The notes: generated by a model not told the origin, from the letters alone. DNA of 64,000 nucleotides from an uncultured virus (IMG/VR IMGVR_UViG_3300028601_000024) (IMGVR_UViG_3300028601_000024); one strand, 5' to 3'; counted from the stretch's first letter, positions 11,934-44,905 are shown. Numbers and translations are program-made.

Positions 11934-11959
11934 GTTTTAAAACTATTAGGAGACTACCA

Positions 11960-12035: not shown

Positions 12036-12040
12036 ATAAA

Positions 12041-12115: not shown

Positions 12116-12126
12116 TTATTTTAATA

Positions 12127-12550: not shown

Positions 12551-12555
12551 TCACA

Positions 12556-12635: not shown

Positions 12636-12640
12636 ATATT

Positions 12641-12716
12641 TGGTGGGTTGAGCAGGGTTTGAACCTACGACCACTCCGTTATGAGCGGAGGGCTCTACCA
12701 GCTGAGCTATCAACCC
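12641..12716 (-). tRNA. tRNA with CAT anticodon (Ile2 or elongator Met)
   Basis: CTCCG-CTCATAA-CGGAG arm, GGG start, CCA. Confidence 0.9.
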
Positions 12717-21920: not shown

Positions 21921-21944
21921 AGCATTCCTTTTTTAATACTATAT

Positions 21945-22810
21945 TATTTCTATATTACATTACAATATCACTTAAGATAAATTTAATAATTCATCATTTT
22001 TCACCTATCTTAAGTGATAGTTTTTGTAAAAAAATGAGCAAAATTTTGTAAAGTGGAGGGAGTGGCCCCAAAAACTATCACGAGTGATAGTTTTATTTAA
22101 TATAGAAATAACCCGCGCTTAAACCATATATATTTCATTGCTTTTAGAAATTATTAAATTATTCTTAAATTAATTTATTAATTAATATTTTAATATTAAT
22201 TTCATTAATTAAAATTTTCTGAAAATATTTTTTAAATCTTATAATAATCTGACAGATTTCATCTAATTTTTTATGACCTATCATCAGTGATAGGTCATAA
22301 TCTTAAATATTAAAATTAAATAAAATAATTCAGTAGAAATACAGTTATCAAATTACTCCAATAGTCAATCAAATCATTGACTATTGTAAAATTGGTTATT
22401 TCTATATTAACTACTAATTATCTTATGTGATACTGACATTTTGTGATTAATTTTAATTCTGCAGAAATGACCTATCACCAGTGATAGTTTTTGAAAAAAT
22501 TAATCATATTATGTCAGACTATTATAAGATTGTTAATAATTTAGAATATAATTTAATTGATATGATTAGTTATACAAAATTAGTATCATTCTCAAAATTT
22601 AGAAATACAAAAAATATTTTCTTGAAACATAATGAAATCATTGTGTTTAAGCATACTCTATATTTCTATATTACTTGGAACTATCACTAGTGATAGTTTT
22701 TGGTGCAACCTACTTCACTTTACAAATTTTTACTCATTTTTTCACAAAAACTATCACTTAAGATAGTTTTTTTTCAGTGTATTATTAAAGATATCTTAAG
22801 TGATAATTAG
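21945..22810. repeat. ~850-bp imperfect palindrome with symmetric CTATCAC-NN-GTGATAG sites (candidate origin or segregation locus)
   Basis: Mirror-paired sites at 21966/22792, 22005/22751, 22075/22681 and 22278/22472; central hairpin caatagtcaat/attgactattg at 22359-22386. Confidence 0.85.
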
Positions 22811-22832
22811 CACAAGAAAAATAGAAAAGGAT

Positions 22833-23576
22833 TTAACCTTTTCTATTTTCTAATTCATCATAATGTCCACCAATTATTAATTCTAAATCAGTTGAGGTAT
22901 TACTAGTTGTTCTTGTGATATTTTCACTAATAGCATCTTTAGTGTAACCATAAGAAAAACCTTGACCATTATTTAATTTGTGAGCACTAGTTTTTGTAGT
23001 AATTGCTCGATCTTTTGTATATTTCATATCTATTAATCTTACTGGTTTGAATCCTTCTTTCGTATTCTCACCATAAAGTACTGTTAAAATCGTTTCAATA
23101 TGATGAAGCATGATATTATTGGTACTAAGGATTTGCTGATGTATAGCGAGTATTTGCTTATCTATCTCGCCATTTAAATATTTAACTCTATTCTCAAACA
23201 GTTTATCAACTGTTTTAATATTAGTACTGTTACTTTTAGTAGTAGCACTAAATAGAATATCACCTGGAATATAATTATGTATAATTATTCCTTTATTTAC
23301 TTCATTATCTTCTGGAATAGTTAAATTTATATTAAAAGGTAAATAAATATTTATTTCATCATTAAATTCAGGTATTTCAACAATAATTGATCCTGGGATG
23401 CTTATTACTGTTTCAAGTATTTCATCGTCATCATCTCCACTAACATCTAATAATTCTTCATCATCAATTTTAAAATCATTTTTATTTAATCTAACAACCG
23501 TATTGTATTTGCATATAATTTTATGTTTAGATATTTCAAAATATTTTTCTAATTTCTGACTAGTTGTTAATTTCAA
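22833..23576 (-). CDS. RNA polymerase beta' C-terminal fragment
   Basis: IMLHHIETIL (~INDKHIEVIV); ITTKTSA...GFSYGYTKDAI...LELIIGG (~region H). Confidence 0.7.
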   Translation of the reverse strand: MKLTTSQKLEKYFEISKHKIICKYNTVVRLNKNDFKIDDEELLDVSGDDDDEILETVISIPGSIIVEIPEFNDEINIYLPFNINLTIPEDNEVNKGIIIHNYIPGDILFSATTKSNSTNIKTVDKLFENRVKYLNGEIDKQILAIHQQILSTNNIMLHHIETILTVLYGENTKEGFKPVRLIDMKYTKDRAITTKTSAHKLNNGQGFSYGYTKDAISENITRTTSNTSTDLELIIGGHYDELENRKG

Positions 23577-23790: not shown

Positions 23791-24096
23791 TTATTTACTA
23801 TATTCATTTGTTAAACATAGTCCCCAATCTTGAGCAAATAAATCTTCTTGTGTTACTTCCCATACTTGAACTGTATCATTTATACACATATCAATATGTG
23901 GTAAATATTTTATATGATGACCCTCTTCAAAAATTCCTAGAAGAGGTTTCCTATTTACCTTGAACTCACTTCCAGGAACTAAGAATATAAAGCCTTCTTG
24001 GCTTGCGCGCTTAACTCTATTACCTGCTAATATATTACTAAGTGCCCATTGAAATGAGTGATTTGATAGTGTGTCTATATTTCTAGTATCTTTCAT
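23791..24096 (-). CDS. DUF2829 / Tad2-like anti-Thoeris sponge protein
   Basis: FQWAL...G.RVKR...FIFLVPGS...PHIDM...W..TQEDLFAQDW signature. Confidence 0.8.
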   Translation of the reverse strand: MKDTRNIDTLSNHSFQWALSNILAGNRVKRASQEGFIFLVPGSEFKVNRKPLLGIFEEGHHIKYLPHIDMCINDTVQVWEVTQEDLFAQDWGLCLTNEYSK

Positions 24097-24152
24097 ATTA
24101 TTCCTTTAATTTTTAATTTGTACTTTGTTAAGATGTGTAAGGAAAATACTAA

Positions 24153-24292
24153 TATTTCTATATTACTTGTTAGAATTATAATAAGTTAGTATAGAAATAA
24201 TAATATTAGTAAAGGATATGAATTGGTCATATTCGAGAGTCGTAAAGACTAACAACAACAGGAATTCAACCTGTAATTTTTAAAGGATTATT
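24153..24292 (+). promoter_or_regulatory. Repeated promoter + structured leader cassette, copy 1
   Basis: Near-identical to 36248-36397 and 37627-37782; contains TATTTCTATATTAC. Confidence 0.8.
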
Positions 24293-24469
24293 ATGGAAAT
24301 TAAATACATTTGCACTATGTGTAACACTGAATTTGTAACGAAATTAGAGGAAACAGACGGATCATTCGACATTATAGTCGAATGCAAATGCGGTTGTTGC
24401 GAAGTCGAACCAATGGTTGACTTCGATGAATTAGATGAGATATTAAAAGAATTAGAGACTAGTCTCTAA
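24293..24469 (+). CDS. 58-aa acidic zinc-ribbon mini-protein (not in the ORF track)
   Basis: AAAGGA RBS; MEIKYICTMCNTEF...ECKCGCCEVEPMVDFDELDEILKELETSL; palindromic terminator at its end. Confidence 0.75.
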   Translation: MEIKYICTMCNTEFVTKLEETDGSFDIIVECKCGCCEVEPMVDFDELDEILKELETSL

Positions 24470-24501
24470 TTCTTTTATTTAGAAAGGAAAATTAGGGAAA
24501 T

Positions 24502-24536
24502 AAAAAATATCCTAGACTAAGTCTAGGATATTTTTT
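24502..24536. terminator. Bidirectional terminator
   Basis: aaaaaatatcctagact-a-agtctaggatatttttt between convergent genes. Confidence 0.75.
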
Positions 24537-24544
24537 ATTGTTCA

Positions 24545-25039
24545 CTATTTTAATTTTGTTGCATCATCCTTCTTTTCCTTATCTTCCTTTTTATTATCCT
24601 CTAACCAATCCTCATTTAAAGGAGAAACATCTTGTTTAATAATTCTTAATGTTTCTCCTATAAAATCTTTACCTTGATCAACATAATCAAAATCTTTACA
24701 ATCATAGCATAGGGTGATATGAGGAACATATTTATCATAATCATAACTGGCTCCTGCTTTTAGTGCTAGTTTATGCTGTTTTTCACAAATTTTGCATTCT
24801 AATTCAACATGTAAATTTTTACCATTTGGTGTATCAAAATGTCCAAATTTTTTAATATGAACTATCTTATCTAATGTTTTCTCATGTTTTGAAAAATCAA
24901 TCGGTGCTTTACTGTATACAATTGTACAATGAAAATCATCTTCGAAGTCTTTAGACAATCCAAAATGTTTTAAAATTTTTAATAATTTCTTTTCACTTGT
25001 TTTACAAAATTTAAAATCACTATAGGTTGGCTGTTTCAT
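24545..25039 (-). CDS. 2H phosphoesterase, T4 gp57B/Acb1-like (anti-CBASS)
   Basis: FHCTIVYSK and GASYDYDKYVPHITLCYD, two HxT motifs. Confidence 0.8.
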   Translation of the reverse strand: MKQPTYSDFKFCKTSEKKLLKILKHFGLSKDFEDDFHCTIVYSKAPIDFSKHEKTLDKIVHIKKFGHFDTPNGKNLHVELECKICEKQHKLALKAGASYDYDKYVPHITLCYDCKDFDYVDQGKDFIGETLRIIKQDVSPLNEDWLEDNKKEDKEKKDDATKLK

Positions 25040-25057
25040 AATTTTCCTTTATTTATT

Positions 25058-25795
25058 TTATTTATTTTTAAAATGAAGTTTATTTACTTCATTAAGTAAT
25101 TCTTCCAAAATATTATCCATTATACCATGCTCCGGAAATATAGGTAATTTCTTTCTTCGTGGATATAGAATTGGATAATATTTTAGAATTCTATTAAATT
25201 CTATTTTATTAATTGTTTTAATTTGTCCACTATTTAATTTTTCAATATATTCATCTGTTTCTTTTTTATATTGTGTAAATTCTTTAGTAATGTTTCTTGG
25301 ACATCTAGGAAGCTTTTTATTGGGATGTATAAATTTCCAATATTTTTTAATTTTATTATAATCAGCTTTACTCATTTTAGGCATTTTTACTTTTTCTTTA
25401 TAATGTAAAATAGGTAATGGACACAGATCACTATCGTGGAAATCTGCCAAATTTCTTAGTAATTCACTAAATCCGATATCTTTATCTAATCCAAGTCTTT
25501 TATAAAAATTCCAAACCTTTCCTTCAAAGGCGTTGCACCTGAATTCTAAAGCTCCTCGAATAAATCCTAGTTTATTGTCTAATGTTGGTATATCATTTTT
25601 TAATTTATGTTTATGATCTACAACTACGCTTGGACTATCTAATTCAATATGTTTTTTAAGAATTGGACATATTCCATTTTGAATTTTAATCAATTCATTT
25701 TTGATAGGTTTTATGTGACTTTGAGAAGTTAAATAATATCCATCTGGGTGTAATTCACAATTTTCTTCTAAATATTCTTTTAATTGTTGAGACAT
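25058..25795 (-). CDS. Recombination endonuclease VII-like nuclease
   Basis: QNGICPI...VVDHKH...IRGAL...CNAFEGK. Confidence 0.8.
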   Translation of the reverse strand: MSQQLKEYLEENCELHPDGYYLTSQSHIKPIKNELIKIQNGICPILKKHIELDSPSVVVDHKHKLKNDIPTLDNKLGFIRGALEFRCNAFEGKVWNFYKRLGLDKDIGFSELLRNLADFHDSDLCPLPILHYKEKVKMPKMSKADYNKIKKYWKFIHPNKKLPRCPRNITKEFTQYKKETDEYIEKLNSGQIKTINKIEFNRILKYYPILYPRRKKLPIFPEHGIMDNILEELLNEVNKLHFKNK

Positions 25796-25798
25796 AAT

Positions 25799-26062
25799 TT
25801 ATCCTGTACTATCTATAAAATTGATTACACTAGTAGGAATTTTATCTAAAGATTTATATCCTTTGCTTCTTGCTCTATGAGTATATATAAAATATGGTTT
25901 ATCTTTTTCTGATCTCCGTCTTGAAAATCCACAACTAAAGCCCTTCTTTTCTTTTATTCCTTTACAAGGAATATTGTCGAAATATGATTTAGAGGAAGAT
26001 TCTAATATCAATTGTTTATTTAATTTAATAATCATATTATTTCCTTTATTGATTTTAAGCAC
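25799..26062 (-). CDS. Small basic protein with an LILES leader (putative virion protein)
   Basis: KLNKQLILES resembles the 0-2.4 kb leaders; YTHRARSK.Y motif; probable start at the second Met. Confidence 0.55.
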   Translation of the reverse strand: MLKINKGNNMIIKLNKQLILESSSKSYFDNIPCKGIKEKKGFSCGFSRRRSEKDKPYFIYTHRARSKGYKSLDKIPTSVINFIDSTG

Positions 26063-26092
26063 ATGAAAATCTAAGAGAATTACTCTCTTAGA

Positions 26093-26461
26093 TTAGTATA
26101 CAAATCCACCTTGAGGTACATCAGCTGATCTATATTTAGTAGAAACTTTAGTTTCTACAGGTGCAAGTGTTTCTGCTTCTGCAGGTGCAAGTGTTTCTGC
26201 TTCTGTTTCTGTTTCTGCTTCTGCAAGTGTTTCTGCAAGTGTTTCTGCCGGTGCTTCTGCCGGTGCTTCTGTTTCTGCTTCTGTTTCTACTTCTGTTTCT
26301 ACAGGTGCTTCTACTTCTGTTTCTACTTCTACTTCTGTTTCTACAGGTGCTTCTACTTCTGTTTCTACTTCTACTTCTGTTTCTACAGGTGCTTCTACAG
26401 GTGCAAGTGCTTCTGTTTCTACAGTTGCTTCTTCTAATTTAGCTATTTTATTCTTTGCCAT
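26093..26461 (-). CDS. Acidic low-complexity ([12 protein letters not shown]) repeat protein
   Basis: AAGGA RBS, degenerate 6/12/36-bp repeats, hairpin after the stop. Confidence 0.7.
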
Positions 26462-26520
26462 AATATTTCCTTTTTTATTTGGGTTTATTTCGAATTTGTT
26501 AAATAATAATTAAAAATAGT

Positions 26521-27648
26521 CTAATCCATTTTTTTAAATTCTTCAATTAAATTAACTTCTTCTTTATCAAGTCCTACCCCAACATGAGATTTTTTAAGAG
26601 TAAGATTCACAAGATTTCCTGTTAATCCAGTACTTGCAATTAATCCAATATTTGCGCCAGAATTTAATTTCGCATCCTTAATATATTTAGGATTGTAACA
26701 CCTATGACATATTCCATCAAGTGATTTACAATATAAAGGACTACGTAATTGAATTGTTTTACCAATCAATTCTTTATTACTTGGTGTAATTTGTTTTTCA
26801 CCCAGAGAAGTTTTATAATATCTTCCCTCTAATGATTTTAATATATCTGAATCCTGTATCTTAAGTTTTAAATAATTAGTTGTTTTACAATCTAAACTTT
26901 TACTCAATTTAATACGTTCAGCAATGGTTGATAGTTTTCTACCAAGAAATCCAGGAGCACTTGTTTCAACCCCTTTAGAATATAATGCTTGTATTGCTTG
27001 ACTTGTTCCATTAAAGAATTGGGTTTGAGTCAAGCCCTCCGCATGAGAATTATCTATAACATCATTTACTTCTCCGAACGAGTTAATGCTAAGTCCTACC
27101 CCAAGTAATAATGATTGAATATGACTGATATTACCTTTTGCTCCACTATTCATTAAATCAGTAATACTTATATTATTCTTATCAAAATATAATTTAACTT
27201 TTTCAGCTAATTTAGTTATATTTTTTTGAAAATTTAAAGCATCCTCGGTAGTCTTTTTACTATCATTATATATTTTAATATATTCATTTTTTTCTTTACG
27301 AAATTCATCTGGGATAATGAGTGCTTCTGGTTGAAAACTAGATGGATTAACACTACTTAGGGTAAACCCCGCTTGCATTAGTAAATAATAGAACCACATG
27401 AACTCAATATCATTACAACTTTCACTTAAAGTATGAATATATTTACTAATATTTTTTTTAGTTAATACACCGGGTAATTTAATTTTAGGATAAAAAATAT
27501 TTTGTTCAAGATTCTTTATAGTTTTTTTCTGAAAGTCTTTACTTTCAGAATCTATTTTTAATTGATCATGAAATGATTGCAACCTACTCATTACCCAAGT
27601 AGGTGGCTTTGCATGTTCAGGATATATAAATGGTTGATTAAAATTCAT
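26521..27648 (-). CDS. RNA polymerase beta' middle fragment (bridge helix + trigger loop)
   Basis: LMNSGAKGN (~MADSGARGS), EGLTQTQFF, TSAPGFLGRKL (~TANSGYLTRRL), RSPLYC..GICHRCY, NLTLKKSH (~QLTMRTFH). Confidence 0.9.
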   Translation of the reverse strand: MNFNQPFIYPEHAKPPTWVMSRLQSFHDQLKIDSESKDFQKKTIKNLEQNIFYPKIKLPGVLTKKNISKYIHTLSESCNDIEFMWFYYLLMQAGFTLSSVNPSSFQPEALIIPDEFRKEKNEYIKIYNDSKKTTEDALNFQKNITKLAEKVKLYFDKNNISITDLMNSGAKGNISHIQSLLLGVGLSINSFGEVNDVIDNSHAEGLTQTQFFNGTSQAIQALYSKGVETSAPGFLGRKLSTIAERIKLSKSLDCKTTNYLKLKIQDSDILKSLEGRYYKTSLGEKQITPSNKELIGKTIQLRSPLYCKSLDGICHRCYNPKYIKDAKLNSGANIGLIASTGLTGNLVNLTLKKSHVGVGLDKEEVNLIEEFKKMD

Positions 27649-27657
27649 AGTATCACT

Positions 27658-28875
27658 TTATTCGTAAATTTTATCCATGCCACGAATAATATATTGTTTC
27701 TCTGATGGATAGTGAATATTTTCACATTCGGTTTCGATACAAGTAAATCTTGTACTAAAGCTATCACCACCTAGAGGCTTATACAATAAACTATTAACGA
27801 CAACATGATAACTATTCGTTGGAATAATAATTGGTTTAAGTGTGTGATAACTTCCTTTATCCCAAGCCGGATCCCTTTTTGTTAGAACTCTTAAATCTTT
27901 ATACACCTCTAACATCTCTTTTAATAACTCAATCCATGTTTCTCTTAATCCTGAGTTATTTAAAGTATATGTATCACTGTTTCTATAAATATAATCGAAG
28001 TGTTCTCCTAATTCATTAATACTAAATGATTTAATTTTTAATAATTCAGCGTAATCTTTTGAAAGATTATTTTTAGTTAAAACACTAATTACATACACAT
28101 CAAATACATTTATTAATACATGCCAAGGTAATCCTATACAGTTAAAAGGAATATCAGGTCTAGCATTTGCAACTAGTCTAACATTATTATCTATTCTTTT
28201 ACTTATTAACTCCCCTCGAAATTTTCCATCTTTCTTTTCAAGTATTGTTATAAAATATTTATATAGCTCAAGAATCATGCGTTGAACAATTGTCGCTTTG
28301 CTACTTTGTTGCATCATTTGATCTAAATAATCCGCATCTAATTGTCCAGCAATTGTTCTAACTAAAAGTTTTTTATAAAGTCCTGTAATTTCATCTTCTT
28401 CAATTAATCCATGTTTCTCAACATAGTTTCTATATATTGTAGGAATTACTAAAAATTTATCAATAAATACATTAGTAGTTTTAAAAAATTCTACAATATC
28501 TTCGACACCTGGTTTTATATATTTATCAAAATCTATCTTTTTAAAATTATGATAAAGCCAATCTACACCTGATTTACCATTGTCATCTTTTACTAATTTA
28601 CCCTCTTCGATAATATAACTTTTTTCATTTAATATACAATATTTAAAATCAGGTGACAATTTTATAATTGCATCAAATGCTGCCGGGTGAATAACATTTG
28701 TGTTTAAAGAAATATATCCAAATCTGGTGCGTTTTTCGTCATTTGTAATTCCAAAAATTCTAGGACTATATAGTCCTGAATTTGTAGGTCCATTTTTATC
28801 AAATGAATTTACTTGTGTTACTTGTAATGCTTTATGTTGATTAATAAATTTATTAATATCTAAAATTTTTAACAT
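27658..28875 (-). CDS. rpoC: RNA polymerase beta' N-terminal fragment fused to a 34-aa split-intein N-part (27661-27762)
   Basis: GLYSPRIFG, VIPTIYR, GKFRGELISKRID, KRDPAW (~NRAPTL); homology ends at YKPLGGD, the first Asp of the catalytic motif. Confidence 0.88.
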   Translation of the reverse strand: MLKILDINKFINQHKALQVTQVNSFDKNGPTNSGLYSPRIFGITNDEKRTRFGYISLNTNVIHPAAFDAIIKLSPDFKYCILNEKSYIIEEGKLVKDDNGKSGVDWLYHNFKKIDFDKYIKPGVEDIVEFFKTTNVFIDKFLVIPTIYRNYVEKHGLIEEDEITGLYKKLLVRTIAGQLDADYLDQMMQQSSKATIVQRMILELYKYFITILEKKDGKFRGELISKRIDNNVRLVANARPDIPFNCIGLPWHVLINVFDVYVISVLTKNNLSKDYAELLKIKSFSINELGEHFDYIYRNSDTYTLNNSGLRETWIELLKEMLEVYKDLRVLTKRDPAWDKGSYHTLKPIIIPTNSYHVVVNSLLYKPLGGDSFSTRFTCIETECENIHYPSEKQYIIRGMDKIYE

Positions 28876-28884
28876 CTTGTTCCT

Positions 28885-31800
28885 TTAGAGTGTTCGGTGT
28901 ATAGCAGGTGCGGTAACGCTACCAAATGGTGTATGTATTAAAGGATTTTCATCTTCTGGTATCAATCCATTATATATCTCTGGTTCGTTGTCTTTACGAT
29001 AGTCTAAATGATCAATATGTTCTTGTTTAACATTTTCCATTCTTAACTTTCTATTTTCATACAACGTATCTTTAATTTTAGCATTTGAATATTCTGGCAT
29101 TAAATTTGCTAAATTATTTTCAGTGGTGATCAATTTTTTAACCTTATCTCTATCGATAATGATTCTAATTTGATCATCTACTGTTCGTTTAGTAATTCCA
29201 TTTAATTCTAACTGATTCATTTTAATAAACTGTTGAACACTCAAGAAATTTTTATTACTGCTTGATTTAATATATTTATTAATAAGTACTAAATCTATTG
29301 ATCCATCTCTATCGAAACTTTCTTTAATATTATCTAGCATTTGAATATTATTTGACATTACAATTGCATCGTCAATATTTTCATTCATTTGAAGTTTAAT
29401 ATTATCCCAATCATTTTCAACTAATTTAATTACCAGTTCGCCAAAGGAATGCATTAAAAGAATTTGTCGATTGAATTGATTATTCTTAATATTATTTTGA
29501 CACCATTCTTTTTTCAATTTAGTTTTGTAAATAATTGCCCAGAAGTCAAGCAATTCAGTTTTAATATCAAGCACAAGATCATCAATTGTTTTCCAACCCA
29601 TAGCGAATGAACTTTCTTTCAATGTTACATCAAGCCTATAATAACTAAGTCGTCTATCTTCACTTTCATGTCGAGCTGGACACTCACTATTAGTAAACAT
29701 AATAAAGTTAAAATATCTTCTAGTTTTATAACTATCAACTCCTTTTTTCTCAAGGTTGATATAGCTATTTCCTGATATATTTTTTAAGTTATCCATTTCT
29801 TTAGTTGTACTATAGGTTCCTTCATCTAGAACCACCAAACTACTAGTTCCCATGTAGTTATTGAAGTTACTCATAATTTTATCACTTGAAGCCGTATTAA
29901 TATATTCTTTACTAAAGTAATAATTTAAAATAGTCTCACTAAATAATCCTTTACCTGTTCCTTGAACACTCGAGAATATAGGAATTATAGGCATGACTTC
30001 AAATTTACTTTGTGCAGCTAACCAGTTTATAAAATAAGGTAAACTACCTTTTTGTGTAATTTGATTCACATAATACCACATAGTAGGTAATGTTTCTTTA
30101 ATAAGATTCATACTAGATTCAAGATCTAGCTCATCCATATTTTTTGCTCTTTCGTGAACAGCTAAATATTCTTTTCCTGGAATCCAAAGATTAACATATC
30201 GGACACCCTTTCTTTCAAAAGTATGAGGTTTTCCTGGAATAAATTCTTCAAAAGCATTAATCAAAACTTTTTCACAAAATTTATCATGAAATAAAGCTCG
30301 TAGTGCTAAATCAGCATTTTTTACTTTTAATTGATTGGTAAGTATATGTTCTGTCATCATTCTAGTTCCATCAAACATAAATGATTCACCATCTTCAAAT
30401 TCTCGCATAATACATGAACGATTTTTATTTGCTAGTCTATAATAAATTTTTGATTCTGTGTCAACCATTCCTATTAATTCTTCAACTGTTTGTTCTGTTC
30501 GATCATTATCAAAACTTTTTCTTTCCGATTTATTGAGAGTAAAACCGAAATCAACTGCTAATTTTTGAATAACACTTGCTCTAGGCATATCAAGAAATTT
30601 CATTGTAAAAGTAATAATATTGTATACATCATTTCCTTCGTGAAAGTCTCTTGCAATTGATGCCAATCTACCTTTATTTTCATAAATAGCAAATGATGCA
30701 TTATTATCCTGATGAAAAGGACATTTATATGTTGTATAAGAAGAATTTCTTTCAATAATTGCACTTGAATCTTTACTTAGAATTAATTTTTCCATATAGT
30801 CACGTTGAGCAGTGGTATCTGGAATTTTCTTAAGGATTTCAAAATCTTGAGGCGTATTAAATAATGCTTCATCACCTTTATTAAAAGTTTCAGTGCTTTT
30901 ATTATTGATAGTTGCTCTTGATAATATTTTTGATACTTCTAATATATTAGCATTATTGATTAAGTTTTTAAGCTCTTTAATATTAAAACTTATATTCTGG
31001 AGAGCTCCTTGAACTACCTTATCATTTAATTCACTATTTGATATGCGATCTCTTAATTCTATTTCTAATTGATCCAATTTATCATTATTATAAAAGTCTT
31101 CAATTTCTTCACTAAAGCTACCAAAATACTGATCCTTAGGATTAACAGTTCCACCAATTCTTTGTGTGTGAATTATATCACAACTACTTAAGTCAAATTC
31201 TAAATAACAACTAGGAGTTTCTTGTAAGAAACCATATCCCCAAATAGCAATTCTGTCTTTTAATTTACTTAATCCACTTTTGAAAAAAGTAAATATCTCT
31301 TCTGCTTCATAAGGGAGTAATTCTCTATCGAAATCAATAATAAATTGTAAACCTCCACCAGTTGCAAATATGTGACTAGGTTTAAAAATAGTTCCTGCAC
31401 AATGCTCACTCATTATCCGATTCATAACATTTAAAACATGCATAGCAATATGTCTTCTACTTAAATCGATATATGAATTAAAATGAAATCTTTCCTTTCC
31501 TGCATTATGAGCATGAGCATCAACATCTAATACAAATCTACGAATGCCTTTAAAATGTTCTTTATTTGGAGCAGTTCTAATAGTTTTTCCATCATCATTT
31601 TCATAAGGAGCAACATATCTAAAAACACCAGCATTCATTGAAAAACCTATACCTTTTTTCAACTCCTGATCAGTTGTACTATTATATGCTTTTTGTATAA
31701 CATCTAATAATTGATCAACATTTCTTATTTGATCACTAAAAGTTTTAGTACTGATTTTAAATTTTTGATTAGCTTTATCAAAAACAGGTATGCTTCCTGT

Positions 31801-31953
31801 AATGCGAATTGTTTCATCATCTTCTAAATCTCTACCTATTGTGTAATTCCAAAATTCCTGCATTTTAGTAGGTCTAACCCTATCTTGCCAATTTAAAGAA
31901 TCTTTTATTGCAGGTGCACTAGAAAGTTGTTTATCTTGATTGGTTTGGTTCAT
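28885..31953 (-). CDS. Primase-helicase (AEP-like primase, CHC2-like zinc finger, P-loop helicase)
   Basis: LDVD and TGGGLQ primase motifs, CPFHQD.NASF, QGTGKG Walker A, VVLDE, FTN, DRR. Confidence 0.85.
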   Translation of the reverse strand: MNQTNQDKQLSSAPAIKDSLNWQDRVRPTKMQEFWNYTIGRDLEDDETIRITGSIPVFDKANQKFKISTKTFSDQIRNVDQLLDVIQKAYNSTTDQELKKGIGFSMNAGVFRYVAPYENDDGKTIRTAPNKEHFKGIRRFVLDVDAHAHNAGKERFHFNSYIDLSRRHIAMHVLNVMNRIMSEHCAGTIFKPSHIFATGGGLQFIIDFDRELLPYEAEEIFTFFKSGLSKLKDRIAIWGYGFLQETPSCYLEFDLSSCDIIHTQRIGGTVNPKDQYFGSFSEEIEDFYNNDKLDQLEIELRDRISNSELNDKVVQGALQNISFNIKELKNLINNANILEVSKILSRATINNKSTETFNKGDEALFNTPQDFEILKKIPDTTAQRDYMEKLILSKDSSAIIERNSSYTTYKCPFHQDNNASFAIYENKGRLASIARDFHEGNDVYNIITFTMKFLDMPRASVIQKLAVDFGFTLNKSERKSFDNDRTEQTVEELIGMVDTESKIYYRLANKNRSCIMREFEDGESFMFDGTRMMTEHILTNQLKVKNADLALRALFHDKFCEKVLINAFEEFIPGKPHTFERKGVRYVNLWIPGKEYLAVHERAKNMDELDLESSMNLIKETLPTMWYYVNQITQKGSLPYFINWLAAQSKFEVMPIIPIFSSVQGTGKGLFSETILNYYFSKEYINTASSDKIMSNFNNYMGTSSLVVLDEGTYSTTKEMDNLKNISGNSYINLEKKGVDSYKTRRYFNFIMFTNSECPARHESEDRRLSYYRLDVTLKESSFAMGWKTIDDLVLDIKTELLDFWAIIYKTKLKKEWCQNNIKNNQFNRQILLMHSFGELVIKLVENDWDNIKLQMNENIDDAIVMSNNIQMLDNIKESFDRDGSIDLVLINKYIKSSSNKNFLSVQQFIKMNQLELNGITKRTVDDQIRIIIDRDKVKKLITTENNLANLMPEYSNAKIKDTLYENRKLRMENVKQEHIDHLDYRKDNEPEIYNGLIPEDENPLIHTPFGSVTAPAIHRTL

Positions 31954-31977
31954 GAATATCCTTGTTATGTGTTATTG

Positions 31978-33102
31978 TTATTTTATATTGGTTGCGTTAT
32001 AAAGTCCTAGAATAGCATCATCGCTAATCCAATTGTTTATAGTCGCAGTATTCAAATCTTTATAATATTCTTTGTTTTCCGGACTAAATTGTTGAGCATC
32101 TTGTAATGCACCTTTTGTAAAAATACCAGTTGCCCCAAGTATGTCTCCATCACTATTTTTCATAAAGGGTGTAAAAGGTAAACTATAATTTGTCGCACCT
32201 GAATGCTCACATGTTAAATCATATAAAATATTATCATCTGCTTGTTCAAAATTTATACTATTGGTAGGAATCAATAAAGTGTTTCCAATATTTATTCTAT
32301 CCACTAAATCACTCTCGCTCTCAAATGAAATAATAGTATCTTTTACTAATTTAACCTTATTTTCAACAATCGCATACATTTGATTAGTAATATATTTTTT
32401 TGGTAAAAAATTTCTAAAATACATAGGAAGTTTAAAATATAATTCTTTTCCATAAGTATGATTTCTTATAGAATAAAATGCTCCCAAATAATTCAACATT
32501 GTTGTAATTGTATAAATATTAACAAAAGGTTTAATAATACATTTGTCTTGCAGTGTTGACAAATAACCTTTTAAAATTCCTATTATGAACGTATAATTTG
32601 TGTTTATTAGAATGTTTTTATTTAAGCTAATACCTTTACTCGTATTGAATAGTTCTTGCTTAAATTGCTCATCAATATCAATGTCATCAACCTTAAGTTC
32701 TCCTCCAACAACTTGACCAATTAATGTTCCTAAACTATCATCAAGAATAATTTTTTTATCATTTATAACCAAATATGGATTTTGAGTCATATTCAAAGCA
32801 GGGATAGGATATATTAAATAATGATCATTCATAATATTACTTGTATTTGAATGCTCATCTTTTAAAATAGTTGCATTATTATCCATTACTAATATTGAAT
32901 TTTTTTCTCCAATAATAAAATTAGTTCTTCTATTAAAATATCCAGGACACATTAAACCATCATTAAAATTATTTTTTGCAAGTAAAAGGTATTGCAAACT
33001 AACATCATGAAGACTAATATGTATAGATTGTTGTTCGATAACTGAATTATCATCTGTGCGTATAGATTGAATTTTTAAATCTAATGCTCTTGTGTTTTTC
33101 AT
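31978..33102 (-). CDS. Split-intein C-part (316 aa) fused to a 58-aa beta' catalytic segment (31981-32154)
   Basis: LYDLT...NY...MKN|SDGDILGA...ISDDAILGLYNAT (~FDGDQMAV...PSQDVVLGLYYMT); LAGLIDADG-like remnants FIIGILKGYL and MLNYLGA. Confidence 0.85.
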   Translation of the reverse strand: MKNTRALDLKIQSIRTDDNSVIEQQSIHISLHDVSLQYLLLAKNNFNDGLMCPGYFNRRTNFIIGEKNSILVMDNNATILKDEHSNTSNIMNDHYLIYPIPALNMTQNPYLVINDKKIILDDSLGTLIGQVVGGELKVDDIDIDEQFKQELFNTSKGISLNKNILINTNYTFIIGILKGYLSTLQDKCIIKPFVNIYTITTMLNYLGAFYSIRNHTYGKELYFKLPMYFRNFLPKKYITNQMYAIVENKVKLVKDTIISFESESDLVDRINIGNTLLIPTNSINFEQADDNILYDLTCEHSGATNYSLPFTPFMKNSDGDILGATGIFTKGALQDAQQFSPENKEYYKDLNTATINNWISDDAILGLYNATNIK

Positions 33103-33248
33103 TCTTGTTCCTTATGTTGTTATTTGTTTTATCATTAAATATTTTAAACATATAGTATTTCTATGGTTAAATAATTTTTATCACTAGCGATAAAATAAAA
33201 AATTTATATAAATAATTATAAATTTATATAAATTTTCTTAAACTAAAG

Positions 33249-34874
33249 TTAATTAGTCGCACCTATTTTAATCAGTGCTAGATTCAAGGAGTTACACCTT
33301 GACCCTTTTATTTCACTAAGAGCGACTAAGGTCTTAGGATTTGCTAAAAGGTGAGCTGTTAGCTCATCTGTAGTCTTAAATAATTTTTTGAGCCTAGACC
33401 ATAGGCTCCAGTTTGAATTTGTTTTAGAGTTCCTATCAAATTTACTAACATTATCTTCTAGCAATGTTAATAGTGACTTAATAGGAATAGAAACTATTTT
33501 ACCAAATAGTTTTATATTTATAATTCCTTTTTCTTTTAAACATAAACCTCTTCTACCTATAACATAAGCAGCAGATAAATCTTTAGATTTAGCATTATGT
33601 GAAGTGCATAAATTATGAATATTTGAATATCTAAATAAACCAATAACAGATGTATAAGCTGGATTAATTAATTTTAACTTTAATCCATTTCTATTACATT
33701 TGGATTCAAGTAAATCTTTAAACATTGTTCTTGGAAATTTACTAAGCATTCTATTTAAAGATTTACTCTTAAATTTATGGTCTGGTTTAAACTTTAAATT
33801 CTCTACTGTTATTTGATACATTTTATAATGTATAGCTAACTTGACAATATCATCTAATATTTCAGATAATCTTCTTTTTGTTTCTTTGCTCCTTGCATCT
33901 AAATTATTTCCTATTGGATAGTGTTTATAAGTTAAAATATTTCCATCATTCTTTACAAAAGCTACTGCAATCTCTTTCGGACCAATATCAATGCCTATAT
34001 TACCATAAGATTTTTCTGTTAAAAATTTAGAAACAGGTTTTATATAATTATAAGTTATATTTAATACCAATTTACCTTTAGAGTTAAAGTGTATTCTTGC
34101 TGTTTGTCTATTGAATCCATCTAAACTAAATGTATTTAAATGAGATTTTGGTACTTTTATATCTATTTTATGTCCAAAAAGCTTTAATTCGTGATTATTT
34201 TCTTTATTCTTTTGAATTCTGATAAATCTATTACCACTTTTAGATTCTTCGCCTGATATAACCAGACTTAATCTTGATTTGAAATATTCATCTTTGTTTT
34301 TTGGATTTTTATTTCCAAACCATGTAGATAAATATCCTTTAGATTGGTATTTTGTTAATTTATTTTTTAGTATTTGTAATTGATGTTTTTTACCTTTTAT
34401 AAATCCAGGTTTAAAATTATTATGATTAAGAATAACCTCTTGTAAATCTTTTTCTTTTTGTAAAATTTTATTCTCTAAATTTTCTATAGTTGTTATATAC
34501 CATGTGTTCATTGATTCGTAAGAACCTTTAGCAAATTGATATACGCTTAAACCAAAATATGATTTTAAACCATAATCTTTTTGAGCTATTTTATCATATT
34601 CATTACCACTTAAAGCTCTATCATGTTGAAAATCTTGAAATATTCTTCTTTGTAATGAAGATTGAGATTTCATTAATGATAAAATTTCATTATATTGTTG
34701 TTCATTTAGTATTTTTTCTAAACCTAAAGTCATTGTTCTTATTTGAAGCACAGAGTCAATATCATATTTATCTGTTCTTTCAGAATATTTTATGTGCCCA
34801 ATTGTTTTCCACATGCCCAATTCTGATTCTGAAATGTTTAATTTATCAATTATAAATTCTTTAGATTTATACAT
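33249..34874 (-). CDS. tnpB: Large IS607-associated TnpB-like RuvC nuclease
   Basis: IGIDIG, VENL, INPAYTS, DLSAAYVIGRRG; N-terminal MerR-like segment. Confidence 0.8.
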   Translation of the reverse strand: MYKSKEFIIDKLNISESELGMWKTIGHIKYSERTDKYDIDSVLQIRTMTLGLEKILNEQQYNEILSLMKSQSSLQRRIFQDFQHDRALSGNEYDKIAQKDYGLKSYFGLSVYQFAKGSYESMNTWYITTIENLENKILQKEKDLQEVILNHNNFKPGFIKGKKHQLQILKNKLTKYQSKGYLSTWFGNKNPKNKDEYFKSRLSLVISGEESKSGNRFIRIQKNKENNHELKLFGHKIDIKVPKSHLNTFSLDGFNRQTARIHFNSKGKLVLNITYNYIKPVSKFLTEKSYGNIGIDIGPKEIAVAFVKNDGNILTYKHYPIGNNLDARSKETKRRLSEILDDIVKLAIHYKMYQITVENLKFKPDHKFKSKSLNRMLSKFPRTMFKDLLESKCNRNGLKLKLINPAYTSVIGLFRYSNIHNLCTSHNAKSKDLSAAYVIGRRGLCLKEKGIINIKLFGKIVSIPIKSLLTLLEDNVSKFDRNSKTNSNWSLWSRLKKLFKTTDELTAHLLANPKTLVALSEIKGSRCNSLNLALIKIGATN

Positions 34875-35052
34875 TTAAAACTCTTTTTGTTGTGAATCCT
34901 ATATCTTTTGTTTCTATTATAGAATCATAAACTATACTAAAAGGAACATTAAGCTTTTTTGAAATTAATTCTAAATAAATGTATCTAGCTGTTGTACTAT
35001 CTTTAGCATTTATATAAGCTACGTTAAATTTACTTTTAATTTGATAAGTCAT
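34867..35052 (-). CDS. Small hypothetical protein between the IS607 tnpA and tnpB
   Basis: AAAGGA RBS; overlaps the tnpB start. Confidence 0.55.
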   Translation of the reverse strand: MTYQIKSKFNVAYINAKDSTTARYIYLELISKKLNVPFSIVYDSIIETKDIGFTTKRVLNV

Positions 35053-35091
35053 GATGTTCCTTTCTTTTTAAGTATTTCTTTAATTGCGTTA

Positions 35092-35340
35092 CTAAAAGTA
35101 ACTATTTATACTAATAGCTTCATCATTTAATGTTTTTTCTAGCTCTTTTAGTTTTTTTCTTCTATTAGAATACATTTTCATACTAAAATGATGAATAATT
35201 GAAATTAAATCTTGCGTAAGTTCTTCTTGAAAATCTTCCTCTTTTGATGAATTTAAAACTTGTATTTCAGTTCCGTATTTTTTAAATAATTTTTCAAAAT
35301 ATTGAAAACCAAATCTAACCATTCTATCTTTACGTAGAAT
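35092..35340 (-). pseudogene. tnpA: 5'-truncated IS607 serine recombinase
   Basis: KDRMVRFGF...EELTQDLISIIHHFSMKMYSNR; the HTH and catalytic Ser region are absent. Confidence 0.85.
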
Positions 35341-35342
35341 TA

Positions 35343-35472
35343 CTATTTCTATAGTAACTCAAGTCCCTCAAGGTTGATAGTTTGTTGTTAATTTTTTCAA
35401 AATTTTTCAAAAACTAAAAATTTTGGACAAAAACTATCATGAGTGATCATAACATAATCTAATATAGAAATT
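35343..35472. promoter_or_regulatory. Divergent control region at the strand switch
   Basis: Two oppositely oriented TTTCTATA motifs (35344 and ~35460) and a CTATCATGAGTGAT operator-like site (35434). Confidence 0.55.
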
Positions 35473-35525
35473 AATTCTGAATAAATAATAAAATAAAATT
35501 TAATTTTTAAAGCAAAAGGGAACAC

Positions 35526-36173
35526 ATGCTACGAATAGACAAGACTGAAAGTAATGATAAATATTTTACTCATTATCTCGAACCATATATAAATTACATT
35601 GAGACACTAGATATTAAAAATTTTAATTATTTAATATTCCTAGAAGACTTAGATAATATGCATCAATTAGAATTTAATACATTCTTTGATAATGAATTTA
35701 AAACAATTGTTAAATTAATAAATAGACATATATCATTTGATATAAGCGATTTAGATGATCAACCGTATCGTATAAAATTATTATTTGCTAAGAATATAGT
35801 AAAATTTTATATGTTTGATCTTCCATATAATTATTTAAAAAATCATATATTTGCAAACGATTGCGAAAATATGTATGATGCATTAAAAGAATTTGACGAA
35901 CAAGATGTTAAAAGTAAATTAATTGATCAAATTCATCAAATGAAAAGACAATATAATAATTTTAATGAATTAATTAATAATTTAGAGGATACTATCTCTA
36001 ATGATAAAAAACGTGATAAATTTACAGATATTGTGATGTTGCTTGATACTAATATGGATTTAAAATTAAAACTTTTAAAATATCACACAACCTTAATCAA
36101 TAATTCCGAATCATTAAAATTAGTAGAATTAATTAAGATTTATCTAGATAATGATTCATATAATATAATTTAG
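35526..36173 (+). CDS. Hypothetical protein
   Basis: 215-aa ORF followed by a hairpin terminator (36174-36199). Confidence 0.65.
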   Translation: MLRIDKTESNDKYFTHYLEPYINYIETLDIKNFNYLIFLEDLDNMHQLEFNTFFDNEFKTIVKLINRHISFDISDLDDQPYRIKLLFAKNIVKFYMFDLPYNYLKNHIFANDCENMYDALKEFDEQDVKSKLIDQIHQMKRQYNNFNELINNLEDTISNDKKRDKFTDIVMLLDTNMDLKLKLLKYHTTLINNSESLKLVELIKIYLDNDSYNII

Positions 36174-36247
36174 AAGAGAGGTAACTTTACCTCTCTTTTC
36201 ATGTGGCAATTTTTAAACATGCTCCGAAGTAAGATGGAAAATACTAT

Positions 36248-36397
36248 TATTTCTATATTACTTGTTAGAAATATAACGAGTTAGTATAGAAATAATAATA
36301 TTAGTAAAGGATATGAATTGGTCATATTCGAGAGCCATATAGGCTAACAAGTGCTTAATGCACAACGGAGCCATCCGAAAATTCGCAAAGGATAATT
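36248..36397 (+). promoter_or_regulatory. Promoter + structured leader cassette, copy 2
   Basis: Repeat of 24153-24292 with compensatory stem changes. Confidence 0.8.
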
Positions 36398-36532
36398 ATG
36401 GAAAATATAGAAAATTATGATATCGAAGTTGCTCAATTGAGCGACATGTTAGATATAGACTACGAAACATTTTTGAGTCTTGAAGAAGACTCATGGTCAC
36501 TTAACAGTGATGGAGCAGATTATGAATATTAA
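36398..36532 (+). CDS. 44-aa highly acidic mini-protein (not in the ORF track)
   Basis: MENIENYDIEVAQLSDMLDIDYETFLSLEEDSWSLNSDGADYEY; RBS; paralog of 37783..37926. Confidence 0.8.
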   Translation: MENIENYDIEVAQLSDMLDIDYETFLSLEEDSWSLNSDGADYEY

Positions 36533-36693
36533 ATTCATAATCTTTTTCGTGTGTGTTATTTTAATATATTTCTATTTTAAAATATAGGGAGATACAATGT
36601 TGATTGCAATAACAATAACACTTATATTTGTAATAGTTGGATTATTAATCGATTTAGAGTTAATCATTATTGATTTATTTTAAAGGAGATATT

Positions 36694-37623
36694 ATGAAAA
36701 TAATATTATTATTAGCAAGTATTTATATACTTGTATTAGGCAATGAATGTTTTAATATTCAACCAACAGTCGGAAACGCTGTTGGATATGGAATCGGTGA
36801 TAACAGAAAAGAGGCATATTATAATGCTATTCAAGAGTTATCAACATACATTAATGTTAATGTCGAAAGCGACATCGAATTAGTTAATGGCAAATTAACT
36901 AAAGATGAGGCAAGATTGACAAATAATTTATCAATCTCCAACATTAACATTATACACCAATCACGTGAAAACAATGAATGGTGTGTAGTAGTCCAATACG
37001 ATGTTCGAAACATAGAACAACGCATTAAAGGACTTTCATTAAAAAAGGAAGTCCTAGAGGAGAATTATATAAATAACTCTCCTCTAGCTAAAAGAATTAG
37101 AAATGTACTAGGTTTTGATGTAAATCTTAATCTAGTGTATGATAATGGATGGTGGGTTGTGGTTCAAGATAAAAGAGTGAGTTTGCATTATAATGAAATG
37201 CACGAATTCTTTTATAATAAGGATAAACACCCTAAGTACTATAAACTGCATCTGAAGAATGCAGTTTATTATAGTGGAAGTTATTTAAATTTTCGCCTCG
37301 ATAGCGAAATACGAAGACCTTCCACTATTCTCCGGGTGAGAAGTGACGGAATGACCGTTGCACTGACTAAAGACTGGACTAGTAGTTATACTAGTCCAGA
37401 GAGTGAGGAGTTCCGTGTAAAAAATTTGCAAAAAGGGGAAAGTGTAGAACTTCTTATTGCAATAGGTTATCCGATTCACACATTTCCAATGTTTACCGGG
37501 CATAATATTCGTCCGAGTGTTATACATGATTTGTCATTTTATGACATAAATGAAATGTTTAAAACATTTCAAACGAGGACATATAGTGTTCGTAAATATT
37601 GGATTCGTGGTGGTGGAAAATAG
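36694..37623 (+). CDS. Exported LPP20-like protein
   Basis: Signal peptide MKIILLLASIYILVLG; GIG..RKEAY.NAIQELS..INVNVES. Confidence 0.6.
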   Translation: MKIILLLASIYILVLGNECFNIQPTVGNAVGYGIGDNRKEAYYNAIQELSTYINVNVESDIELVNGKLTKDEARLTNNLSISNINIIHQSRENNEWCVVVQYDVRNIEQRIKGLSLKKEVLEENYINNSPLAKRIRNVLGFDVNLNLVYDNGWWVVVQDKRVSLHYNEMHEFFYNKDKHPKYYKLHLKNAVYYSGSYLNFRLDSEIRRPSTILRVRSDGMTVALTKDWTSSYTSPESEEFRVKNLQKGESVELLIAIGYPIHTFPMFTGHNIRPSVIHDLSFYDINEMFKTFQTRTYSVRKYWIRGGGK

Positions 37624-37626
37624 GAG

Positions 37627-37782
37627 TATTTCTATATTACTTGTTAGAATTATAACAAGTTAGTATAGAAATAATAATATTAGAAAAGGATATGAATTGG
37701 TCATATTCGAGAGTCGTAATGACTAATCAGGTGTTTAAGACACAACAGGAATTCAACCTGTAAAAATTTTAAGGAATTAAAA
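37627..37782 (+). promoter_or_regulatory. Promoter + structured leader cassette, copy 3
   Basis: Repeat of copies 1 and 2. Confidence 0.8.
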
Positions 37783-37926
37783 ATGGAAAATTGGGAAGCA
37801 TATTACCTATACGACGAGGAGGCTATAAAATTAAGTAGCTTCCTCGACATAAGCATCGAAGACTTTATGAGTCTTGAAGATGCAGCATGGTCGCTATTAA
37901 GCGACGAAATAGATTATGGTTATTAA
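37783..37926 (+). CDS. 47-aa highly acidic mini-protein (not in the ORF track)
   Basis: MENWEAYYLYDEEAIKLSSFLDISIEDFMSLEDAAWSLLSDEIDYGY; RBS. Confidence 0.8.
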   Translation: MENWEAYYLYDEEAIKLSSFLDISIEDFMSLEDAAWSLLSDEIDYGY

Positions 37927-38127
37927 ACAATAATCTATTTCGTGCGTGTATACATTCTTGTAAAGGAAGGGCAATGGATAGTAATGAAAGCGAGTATATT
38001 GATTACTCGCAAATTGTTAGATAGAGTAGTACATACTACTCTGTCAAAATCTTTCAATGAATTAATTGTAATTTATTGAAAGGTCTTTGACCTAAATTTT
38101 AAGCCTTAGAGGCAATAAGGAATTATA

Positions 38128-44142: not shown

Positions 44143-44176
44143 TTACATATTTCTATAGTAACTTAAAAGGAAAAAA

Positions 44177-44905
44177 ATGGAAAAAAAATTATATGTCGTG
44201 AGTCATAGTGGTGGGTTAGATTCCACGACTATGTTAGCAAAAGCACTTAAAGAAGGTAATATTGTATTACCTTTAAATTTCAACTATGGACAAAAGAATG
44301 TAATTGAAATCAGTGCTCAGCAACAATCTCATAATTATTTCAAGAATATTTATGGAGATCAATTGTTGGACACAATTAATATTGATTTAACTACTTCGAT
44401 TGGTGATCCTATCAAAAAATTTCAAATAAATCGCGATAACGGTTTATCTGAAGAAAAACACGGTATGAAATACTACATGCCAAGTAGAAACTTATTATTT
44501 CTAAGCCTATGTGCAGTCGTAGGGGAAATAATTGCAACTGAAGAAAATTATGATCATATTATAATTGGTATCGGAATTCATAAACATAGCGATGTTTATG
44601 AAAGAGATTATTGGGACATAAGTCCTGAATTTGCTGATCGTCTAAATTTTTTAATTAGCTTAAATGATGTAATCAAAATTACAGTTGATGCACCTTATAA
44701 GGATAAATACAAAGAAGATATTATAAAAGATATGATAGATCTTGCAGTTCCATATGATTTAACATGGACGTGTTATGATCCACAAGAAGTCAAAGAAGGT
44801 CGTTATCGCCCATGCCATGCTTGTGAAGCGTGTTTAGAGCGACAAATTAACGCAAAATCATCATCATATGAAGATATTATAAATTCATATGAATTAACTA
44901 TTTAG
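44177..44905 (+). CDS. queC: 7-cyano-7-deazaguanine (preQ0) synthase
   Basis: SGGLDSTT, NYGQK, PSRNLLF, TWTCY, C..C..C.ER. Confidence 0.92.
   Translation: MEKKLYVVSHSGGLDSTTMLAKALKEGNIVLPLNFNYGQKNVIEISAQQQSHNYFKNIYGDQLLDTINIDLTTSIGDPIKKFQINRDNGLSEEKHGMKYYMPSRNLLFLSLCAVVGEIIATEENYDHIIIGIGIHKHSDVYERDYWDISPEFADRLNFLISLNDVIKITVDAPYKDKYKEDIIKDMIDLAVPYDLTWTCYDPQEVKEGRYRPCHACEACLERQINAKSSSYEDIINSYELTI

Follow-up and report, generated by a model that had tools for sequence, protein, structure and literature searches.

What does a phage gain from a promoter-like sequence that it carries three times over, each time in front of a tiny acidic open reading frame (ORF)? The question is raised by IMGVR_UViG_3300028601_000024, a 64,000-nucleotide stretch of DNA from an uncultured virus, which we analysed whole and refer to as the window. 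A first-pass annotation had pointed to three copies of a promoter and structured-leader cassette in it. Repeat finding and alignment bear out the three copies, and the unit of promoter, folded leader and small acidic ORF does recur three times. We favour, with a probability of about 0.6, the reading that each copy is a two-way early promoter for one of the multisubunit RNA polymerases of the phage, followed by a 95–110-nt folded leader and a tiny acidic early protein.

The copies form a single three-member repeat family with 93% identity to the reference copy (Table 1). In a MAFFT alignment a 100-nt core is 94–95% identical in all three copy pairs, the 10 nt to the left of it are 20–30% identical, and the part from hairpin 2 to the ATG is 59–70% identical. 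The step from core to diverged part is sharp and falls directly after the letters GAGAG. Each copy ends in AAGGA, 6–8 nt before an ATG, so that the ribosome-binding site and the acidic ORF of 44–58 aa starting ME that the annotation had placed behind every copy are indeed there (58, 44 and 47 codons).

The inverted repeat and its promoter motif

The most over-represented intergenic motif of this phage is ATTTCTAT(A/G)NTA(A)C. The most repeated 12-mer of the window is ATTTCTATATTA, and TTTCTATATTAC with at most one mismatch occurs at 13 sites against 2.3 expected, a count that none of 100 shuffled sequences reached. ORFs of at least 90 aa cover 82% of the window and leave just 18% outside them, and all 15 window sites of ATTTCTAT[AG][TCG]TA lie in that remainder. 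Several sites are upstream of co-oriented ORFs; the motif precedes a QueC-like gene (44149), a 99-aa ORF (57756), a 215-aa ORF (35526) and the three mini-ORFs of the cassettes. In the cassettes it reads TATTTCTATATTAC-TTGTTA-G, near the early promoter consensus of the AR9 virion polymerase, AAATATATATTAT-(6N)-G (PMC5312081, Lavysh et al. 2017). Motifs found in the same way in polymerase-encoding jumbo phages have proved to be early promoters wherever tested (PMC7598289). We found here one mark of the promoters of jumbo-phage virion RNA polymerases, namely a conserved AT-rich motif of ~10–13 nt that is over-represented upstream of operons. Related contigs, whose piece of the beta' polymerase subunit is 55–65% identical to that of the window, have motif variants of their own (ATTTCTATGGTAAC in L001, L004 and L009; ATTTCTATACTAAC in L014 and L021). 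The AR9-like motif, its intergenic placement and these clade-specific variants speak for the early type of promoter that the annotation had proposed, and an early, phage-polymerase promoter is the best reading of the motif as far as sequence can tell.

The phage has multisubunit polymerase genes of its own. The window belongs to a low-GC jumbo phage (G+C ~28%, with a strand switch near 35.5 kb) that has split multisubunit RNA polymerase genes: PHROG matches identify two beta-like genes (4440-7466 and 7463-9007) and two beta'-like genes (26521-27648 and 27658-28875). Split beta and beta' genes are typical of jumbo phages of the phiKZ/AR9 type. The nearest GenBank phages are distant, their beta-like protein being just 23–27% identical. 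For the beta' piece there is one 90%-identical relative, on a 13.5-kb contig, and then a clade at 54–65% identity, on contigs of up to 295 kb. In one of these relatives, G004 (272 kb, 97% complete), beta-like genes stand at two separate loci, and like phiKZ and AR9 the clade thus appears to have a pair of polymerases; such a pair of loci was seen solely in G004, and the window itself shows one split beta and one split beta'. Single-protein searches of the viral contig collection gave no relatives, nor did a search of the genome contig collection with the alignment of the beta' piece give a match. The sequencing runs that contain the window stretch are landfill metagenomes.

These polymerases also bear on the possibility that the copies are host-read. 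PeSL cassettes of T4-type phages join a host sigma-70 consensus promoter to a G/C-rich stem-loop that terminates upstream transcription, and number ~50 per genome (PMC2839356, Arbiol et al. 2010; PMC4122927, Comeau et al. 2014). The three copies could be true PeSL cassettes with a host sigma-70-type early promoter, as they are AT-rich, repeated and upstream of ORFans. We consider this extremely improbable, since none of the three cassettes holds a sigma-70-like site (a -35/-10 pair with at least 9 of 12 matches), the motif co-varies with the phage clade, and the phage encodes its own polymerases.

The palindrome TATTTCTATATTACTTGTTA / TAACAAGTTAGTATAGAAATA, which the annotation had described, is found in each of the three copies; folded as a single strand, it reaches -17.8 kcal/mol (z -5.6). 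We found that this 45-nt palindrome is made of two motif copies face to face, with starts 44 nt apart in all three copies; on the minus strand the right arm reads ATTTCTATACTAAC, which is a complete L014-type motif with an AT-rich upstream block of its own. A mirror pair of 44–46 nt also occurs in the related contigs L001, L009/G001, L014, L021 and G003, and is present in 2 of the 4 whole related records that were searched. In L001, ORFs begin 33–34 nt beyond both ends of the pair; in L014 its minus side leads to a 204-aa ORF; and in copy 1 of the window the reverse arm stands 57 nt before the ATG of a Tad2-like gene. Between the two arms there are two differing positions in G003, and one mismatch and one bulge in the window, which argues that they are two sites and not a selected stem. 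Because the mirror pair is kept in relatives with genes on both sides, the left arm is probably promoter DNA and most likely lies outside the plus-strand RNA. We conclude from these sequence patterns that the inverted repeat is a two-way promoter for a phage polymerase. The earlier description of an inverted-repeat promoter thus holds as to the promoter, which is well supported, and fails as to a single promoter with a hairpin.

A palindrome in front of early genes could also be a DNA operator: a dimeric phage repressor would bind the 45-nt palindrome, the ATATGA..TCATAT of the first leader hairpin (H1), or both, and shut off early genes. Such operators would suit the fact that H1 is kept in sequence and not merely in pairing, and other promoters of the window precede a common, operator-like palindrome, CTATCAC..GTGATAG. 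We nevertheless hold the idea to be very unlikely: the 45-nt palindrome has the promoter motif for its arms, and this motif also occurs singly; H1 needs a G-U pair to reach 8 bp; and hairpins H2 to H4 change in sequence yet keep their pairing, as fits a folded strand and not a protein site.

Several other arrangements of the motif were seen. The palindrome CTATCAC(N)GTGATAG directly follows several motifs (16971-17007, 22073-22111, 22662-22700 and 35430-35471) and is a candidate operator or 5'-terminal RNA hairpin common to a second promoter class. An ORF-poor stretch at 21920-22833 has four promoter motifs (21946+, 22109-, 22398+ and 22662+) and an inverted duplicate of a 106-nt unit (22005-22110 and 22661-22766, 87% identity). 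Each unit consists of the motif, a palindrome ACTATCACT..GTGATAGTTTTT at the predicted start, ~50 nt, and a second similar hairpin with a T run; the units look like two ~95-nt small RNA genes, or operator-controlled promoters. The divergent genes at 35322 and 35526 have between them a second, wider face-to-face pair (35345 on the plus and 35471 on the minus strand, spacing 126 nt), whose leaders would overlap in antisense. The mirror pair of G003 (L033 1501-1700, equal to G003 35073-35272) has hybrid arms, TATATTA / TATGGTA.

The leader and its hairpins

Downstream of the promoters each leader holds a series of short hairpins (Table 1). H1, which the annotation had not listed, is identical in all three copies, and its G-U pair fits the plus strand alone. 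The other hairpins (H2 and H3 of 4 bp each, H4 of 4–5 bp) lie in the diverged part, and copy 1 is without H3. They are present with the paired changes reported earlier: AGTC/GACT versus AGCC/GGCT in H2, GTGT/ACAC versus GTGC/GCAC in H3, and CAGG/CCTG versus CGGA/TCCG in H4. The MAFFT alignment of the copies confirms that pairing is kept through changes on both sides; H2 and H3 each have one such change in copy 2, and H4 of copy 2 has been re-made with different letters and a shorter loop. All four changed pairs of H2 to H4 are canonical, and loops and linkers vary freely. The chance that the four changed stem bases of H2 and H3 would form two canonical pairs is 0.003 (0.002–0.008 in simulations at 25–45% divergence). 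Across the alignment, 96.5% of cells are paired, compared with 27–35% when the partner is slid, and minimum-free-energy (MFE) folds of the single sequences recover the hairpins with z-scores of -2.3, -3.1 and -1.9, all better than shuffles. The structure of the leader RNA is plausibly selected, to judge from these comparisons. Of the 100 conserved bases, ~69 (24141-24209 in copy 1) belong to the two promoters and the blocks upstream of them, so a conserved leader portion of ~30 nt around H1 stays unexplained by them.

The same alignment can be read as a relic of recombination or duplication, in which ~100 nt of adjoining sequence was copied along with the two-way promoter, gene conversion kept the copies alike, and the hairpins have no function. 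The sharp identity step after GAGAG is what one expects at the end of a conversion tract, and ~69 of the 100 conserved bases are explained by promoters and upstream blocks. Moreover, the mirror promoters of relatives have leaders of just 33–34 nt, no homologue of the leader was found elsewhere, and the shuffle control is weak, with 77 of 500 shuffles reaching the observed covariation. Still, a relic does not lead one to expect canonical pairs at all four changed positions of H2 to H4 beside varying loops and linkers (the 0.003 above), nor leaders that all three fold better than their own shuffles, and we regard it as unlikely.

A further account makes the leader itself the product: a pause or stop at H4 would yield a ~100-nt small RNA, and read-through the mRNA, as in phage 201phi2-1, where 8 of 11 small RNAs come from premature termination in 5' untranslated regions (PMC11512511). 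The cassettes resemble that case in having a folded 5' leader in a polymerase-encoding giant phage and a possible early stop at H4: in copy 1, H4 with the following AATTTTTAAA was flagged as terminator-like, and the sequence of H1 is invariant. On the other hand, H4 of copies 2 and 3 went unflagged on the plus strand, copy 2 has no T run after H4, and termination is accordingly unsupported in these two. The leader has no sequence or Rfam relation to the 201phi2-1 RNAs, and within the window no antisense target of it was found besides the promoter motif. We judge a small-RNA function to be quite improbable.

Searches for the leader beyond the window returned little. The exact 21-mer of H1 had 0 matches in the viral, metagenome and genome contig collections, and blastn of 36200-38000 against GenBank phages gave nothing. 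In an Rfam scan at the gathering threshold, 7 tRNA genes at 11504-12716 pass and nothing does at the cassettes. Three candidates were rejected. An extra covariance-model match in L020/G004 (E 0.046) was judged to be chance, as it lies inside coding sequence with no motif upstream. A tRNA-like reading of 24258-24320 on the minus strand, overlapping H4 and the start of the copy 1 ORF, scores 22–28 bits against a threshold of 29, and ARAGORN finds none there. An upstream ORF in the leader (MNWSYSR...) has 9, 21 and 23 codons in the three copies, with only 1 nt between GGA and ATG, and was discarded as a candidate for a conserved peptide. In G003 a hairpin of ~115 nt (MFE -54.9 kcal/mol, z -5.8) lies between the mirror promoter and the next ORF; it is not homologous to the cassette leader, and it indicates that long folded leaders after a mirror promoter are not unique to the window.

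Besides the shuffle control, several points weigh against our reading of a two-way promoter with a selected leader. The start site, timing and polymerase of the cassettes are all predictions. At the QueC-like gene (44149-44177) and at the 99-aa ORF with a hydrophobic N-terminus (57756-57784) the distance from motif start to ATG is exactly 28 nt and takes in an AAGGA; the AR9 spacing would there leave an 8-nt leader that cuts into AAGGA, so transcription may in truth begin nearer the motif or even within it. The cassette RNAs would then include some of the left arm, or open with a 7-bp hairpin (CTTGTTA/TAACAAG). G002 (92 kb) and G004 (272 kb) have no mirror pair under the pattern used, and the reverse arms of copies 2 and 3 face no gene. 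The covariation comes from three leader copies of one genome, 4-bp stems are weak, and gene conversion, not selection, could be what keeps the core so alike. A covariance model of the leader matches the three known copies only, in a search of the window with 27 related loci (278 kb) and of four related records (475 kb). The roles proposed below for the proteins draw on charge and neighbourhood alone.

The acidic mini-proteins and the genes around them

All three mini-ORFs are strongly acidic (Table 1), which agrees with the earlier description. The copy 1 ORF has seven Cys residues, in a C-x2-C near the N-terminus and a C-x-C-x-CC cluster, and two variants of it elsewhere keep all the Cys and the reading frame; a 75%-identical 44-aa variant of the copy 2 ORF on another contig, of 7.8 kb, keeps its frame as well. 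The coding nature of the mini-ORFs is supported by these frame-keeping variants. At modest confidence, AF2 models the copy 1 ORF with one helix and three strands (pLDDT 66) and the copy 2 ORF as a two-helix hairpin (pLDDT 72). The mini-ORFs match no Pfam or PHROG family. A word-based protein search with a mini-protein returned only the query itself, a mini-protein search of G001-G004 gave nothing, and the mini-protein alignment had no match in the viral contig collection. An exhaustive profile search at E <=0.001 gave 4 matches, namely the two window paralogues, the 75% variant of copy 2 and a spurious repeat protein. In an atlas search the copy 1 ORF had weak leads of a zinc-ribbon-like kind, and the copy 3 ORF had no leads. 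In the searches made, relatives of the mini-ORFs are confined to the same lineage.

Copies 2 and 3 have paralogous ORFs (BLASTP identity 53%, alignment identity 57%), and as their similarity extends ~25 nt beyond the stop codon, they arose by an old duplication of the entire gene unit. Their cores are 94% identical and their proteins just 53–57%, which suggests either constraint on the promoter core or gene conversion of it. Just past the stop, the 3' flanks of ORFs 2 and 3 (36533-36560 and 37927-37950) share AATAATCT(T/A)TTTCGTG(T/C)GTGT, which has no strong fold. Copies 1 and 3 have their leader in common as far as the ATG (same H2 stem, same H4, and a diverged part that is 70% identical), and the Cys-rich ORF of copy 1 is nevertheless unrelated to the ORF of copy 3. 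Such a pattern would be expected of a cassette that acts as a recombination joint, a reading drawn from comparison of the copies.

Copy 1 lies on the plus strand within a block of minus-strand genes and has its own terminator, as the annotation had it; the hairpin would serve both the copy 1 ORF and the Acb1 gene that runs toward it. The annotation further took the cassette to be portable; copy 1 is, however, not simply a portable insert, given the position of its reverse arm before the Tad2-like gene and the same layout in L001. The Tad2-like (anti-Thoeris) and Acb1 (anti-CBASS) genes on either side of copy 1 form a small counter-defence island.

Table 1. Positions of the cassette parts and of neighbouring genes in the window.
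Feature	Position	Strand	Remarks
Copy 1 core	24141..24255	+	both promoters, upstream blocks, H1, start of H2
Copy 2 core	36236..36350	+	repeat family
Copy 3 core	37615..37729	+	repeat family
Copy 1 forward motif ATTTCTATATTAC	24154..24166	+	predicted start near 24173 by AR9 rule (6 N, then G)
Copy 2 forward motif	36249..36261	+	predicted start near 36268
Copy 3 forward motif	37628..37640	+	predicted start near 37647
Copy 1 reverse motif ATTTCTATACTAAC	24185..24198	-	faces Tad2-like gene
Copy 2 reverse motif	36280..36293	-	would read back to terminator at ~36170-36200
Copy 3 reverse motif	37659..37672	-	would read antisense into 3' end of ORF 36685-37623
Copy 1 H1, GGATATGA-ATTGG-TCATATTC	24214..24234	+	8 bp including one G-U
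Copy 1 H2, AGTC-GTAAA-GACT	24238..24250	+	
Copy 1 H4, ACAGG-AATTCAA-CCTGT, then AATTTTTAAA	24258..24274	+	flagged terminator-like
Copy 2 hairpins	H1 36309-36329, H2 36333-36345, H3 36351-36363, H4 36366-36377	+	H2 AGCC/GGCT, H3 GTGC/GCAC, H4 CGGA/TCCG
Copy 3 hairpins	H1 37688-37708, H2 37712-37724, H3 37731-37743, H4 37745-37761	+	
Copy 1 ORF	24293..24469	+	58 aa, net charge -12.5
Copy 2 ORF	36398..36532	+	44 aa, net charge -14.5, paralogue of copy 3 ORF
Copy 3 ORF	37783..37926	+	47 aa, net charge -12.5
Two-way terminator hairpin, copy 1 ORF (+) / Acb1 (-)	24500..24538	both	strong fold, z -6.07
Tad2-like (anti-Thoeris) gene	23791..24096	-	PF11195 E 2.8e-11; AAAGGA ribosome site; likely driven by reverse arm
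Acb1 (anti-CBASS) gene	24545-25039	-	PF23474 E 3.5e-27
TnpB-like ORFs (three)	13401-14510, 14566-15738, 33249-34874		two close paralogues, one 541 aa with weak Cas12f-like TNB match
76-aa transposase-family fragment (phrog_6620)	35092-35322		adjoins strand switch

A proposed mechanism and its nearest known systems

With a two-way early promoter and a folded leader as the preferred reading, the cassettes might work as follows. The virion polymerase would read the motif straight after infection and start a few bases past it, so that the left arm would serve as promoter DNA and the right arm alone would enter the plus-strand RNA. The two sites overlap, and each initiation would thus go one way; the promoters would be mutually exclusive, each firing in one direction or the other. 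The plus message would consist of the folded leader and the acidic mini-protein. In copy 1 the minus message would be that of the Tad2-like operon; for copies 2 and 3 it would be a short antisense transcript that stops at hairpins close by. After transcription the leader may act in cis to set message lifetime or translation, with the invariant H1 as a sequence-specific handle for a protein or an RNase and with H2 to H4 needed as structures only; the annotation had suggested stabilisation, antitermination or a small RNA as candidate functions. The common unit may also be a site of homologous recombination that moves small genes, like the PeSL cassettes of T4-type phages.

Because of their charge, their early-type promoter and the place of copy 1 between the Tad2-like and Acb1 genes, the mini-proteins are proposed to be host-takeover or counter-defence factors, possibly nucleic-acid mimics. 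Small acidic inhibitors are familiar among early phage proteins, for example T7 Ocr and gp5.9, phi29 p56 and PBS2 Ugi. The mini-proteins recall these by analogy only, in their 44–58 aa, extreme negative charge, early-type promoter and counter-defence neighbourhood. A bolder scheme, which we put forward tentatively and think rather unlikely, would make the 44-nt pair a clade-wide two-way switch for a phage multisubunit RNA polymerase: two polymerases would compete for the overlapping sites, each message would open with the complement of the other promoter, and in this phage the plus side would have gained an RNA handle (H1 with the structural hairpins) that lets a phage or host factor time a burst of the acidic counter-defence mini-proteins.

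The closest described systems are the early promoters of AR9 and phiKZ and the PeSL cassettes. With the former the cassettes share a conserved AT-rich motif of ~12–14 nt with a TATATTA core that is over-represented, intergenic, different between related phages and placed before small genes of unknown function and counter-defence genes; as in AR9, a G lies 6 N past the motif. They differ in that their starts are predicted from the motif, in having two motifs face to face 44 nt apart, and in leaders of 120–137 nt, compared with a typical 31–40 nt in phiKZ (PMC8244752). The consulted sections of PMC5312081 and PMC8244752 make no mention of palindromic or bidirectional promoters, and we found no description of two-way promoters for jumbo-phage polymerases in the open-access literature that was searched. 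Pseudo-symmetrical bidirectional promoters are known for the bacterial sigma-70 polymerase, where one -10 region is shared (PMC12825309); in contrast, the cassettes have two full phage-type motifs, each downstream of the start of the other by the AR9 rule.

With PeSL cassettes they share a repeated early promoter and stem-loop that end at the Shine-Dalgarno sequence and ATG of small ORFans, and the joining of one cassette to unrelated genes (copy 1 and copy 3). Apart from the absence of a sigma-70 match, they depart from PeSL in that their palindrome is AT-rich, has no U run on the plus strand and is itself two promoters, unlike the G/C-rich terminator stem. Their extra hairpins lie in the transcribed leader, and there are 3 cassettes in 64 kb compared with ~50 PeSL per genome.

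Very few cultured phages have so far revealed the promoters of giant-phage virion RNA polymerases, and how DNA is recognised without sigma is still an open question. The motif variants of this clade (TATATTA, TATGGTA and TATACTA) are natural specificity variants for such study, and the fixed 44-nt mirror pair would be a compact two-way promoter suited to work in vitro. By their place behind the cassettes, three orphan mini-proteins of extreme acidity become probable early genes and reasonable candidates for new counter-defence proteins, and the leader would add a modest yet genuine example of compensatory change that preserves hairpins in the early messages of a phage.

Among the other genes of the window are a primase-like protein, an SNF2-type helicase, seven tRNAs and three TnpB-like genes. 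The last had suggested an IS200/IS605 end or a MITE as the origin of the repeat, which we rejected, since no element ends match and the arms consist of the promoter motif; a CRISPR-repeat mimic was also considered, with nothing in its favour. Coding repeats with a 69-nt period (23 aa) are common to three ORFs (45710-45865, 48299-48805 and 55893-56330), and there are a 12/18-nt coding repeat at 26151-26468 and another coding repeat at 2535-2678.

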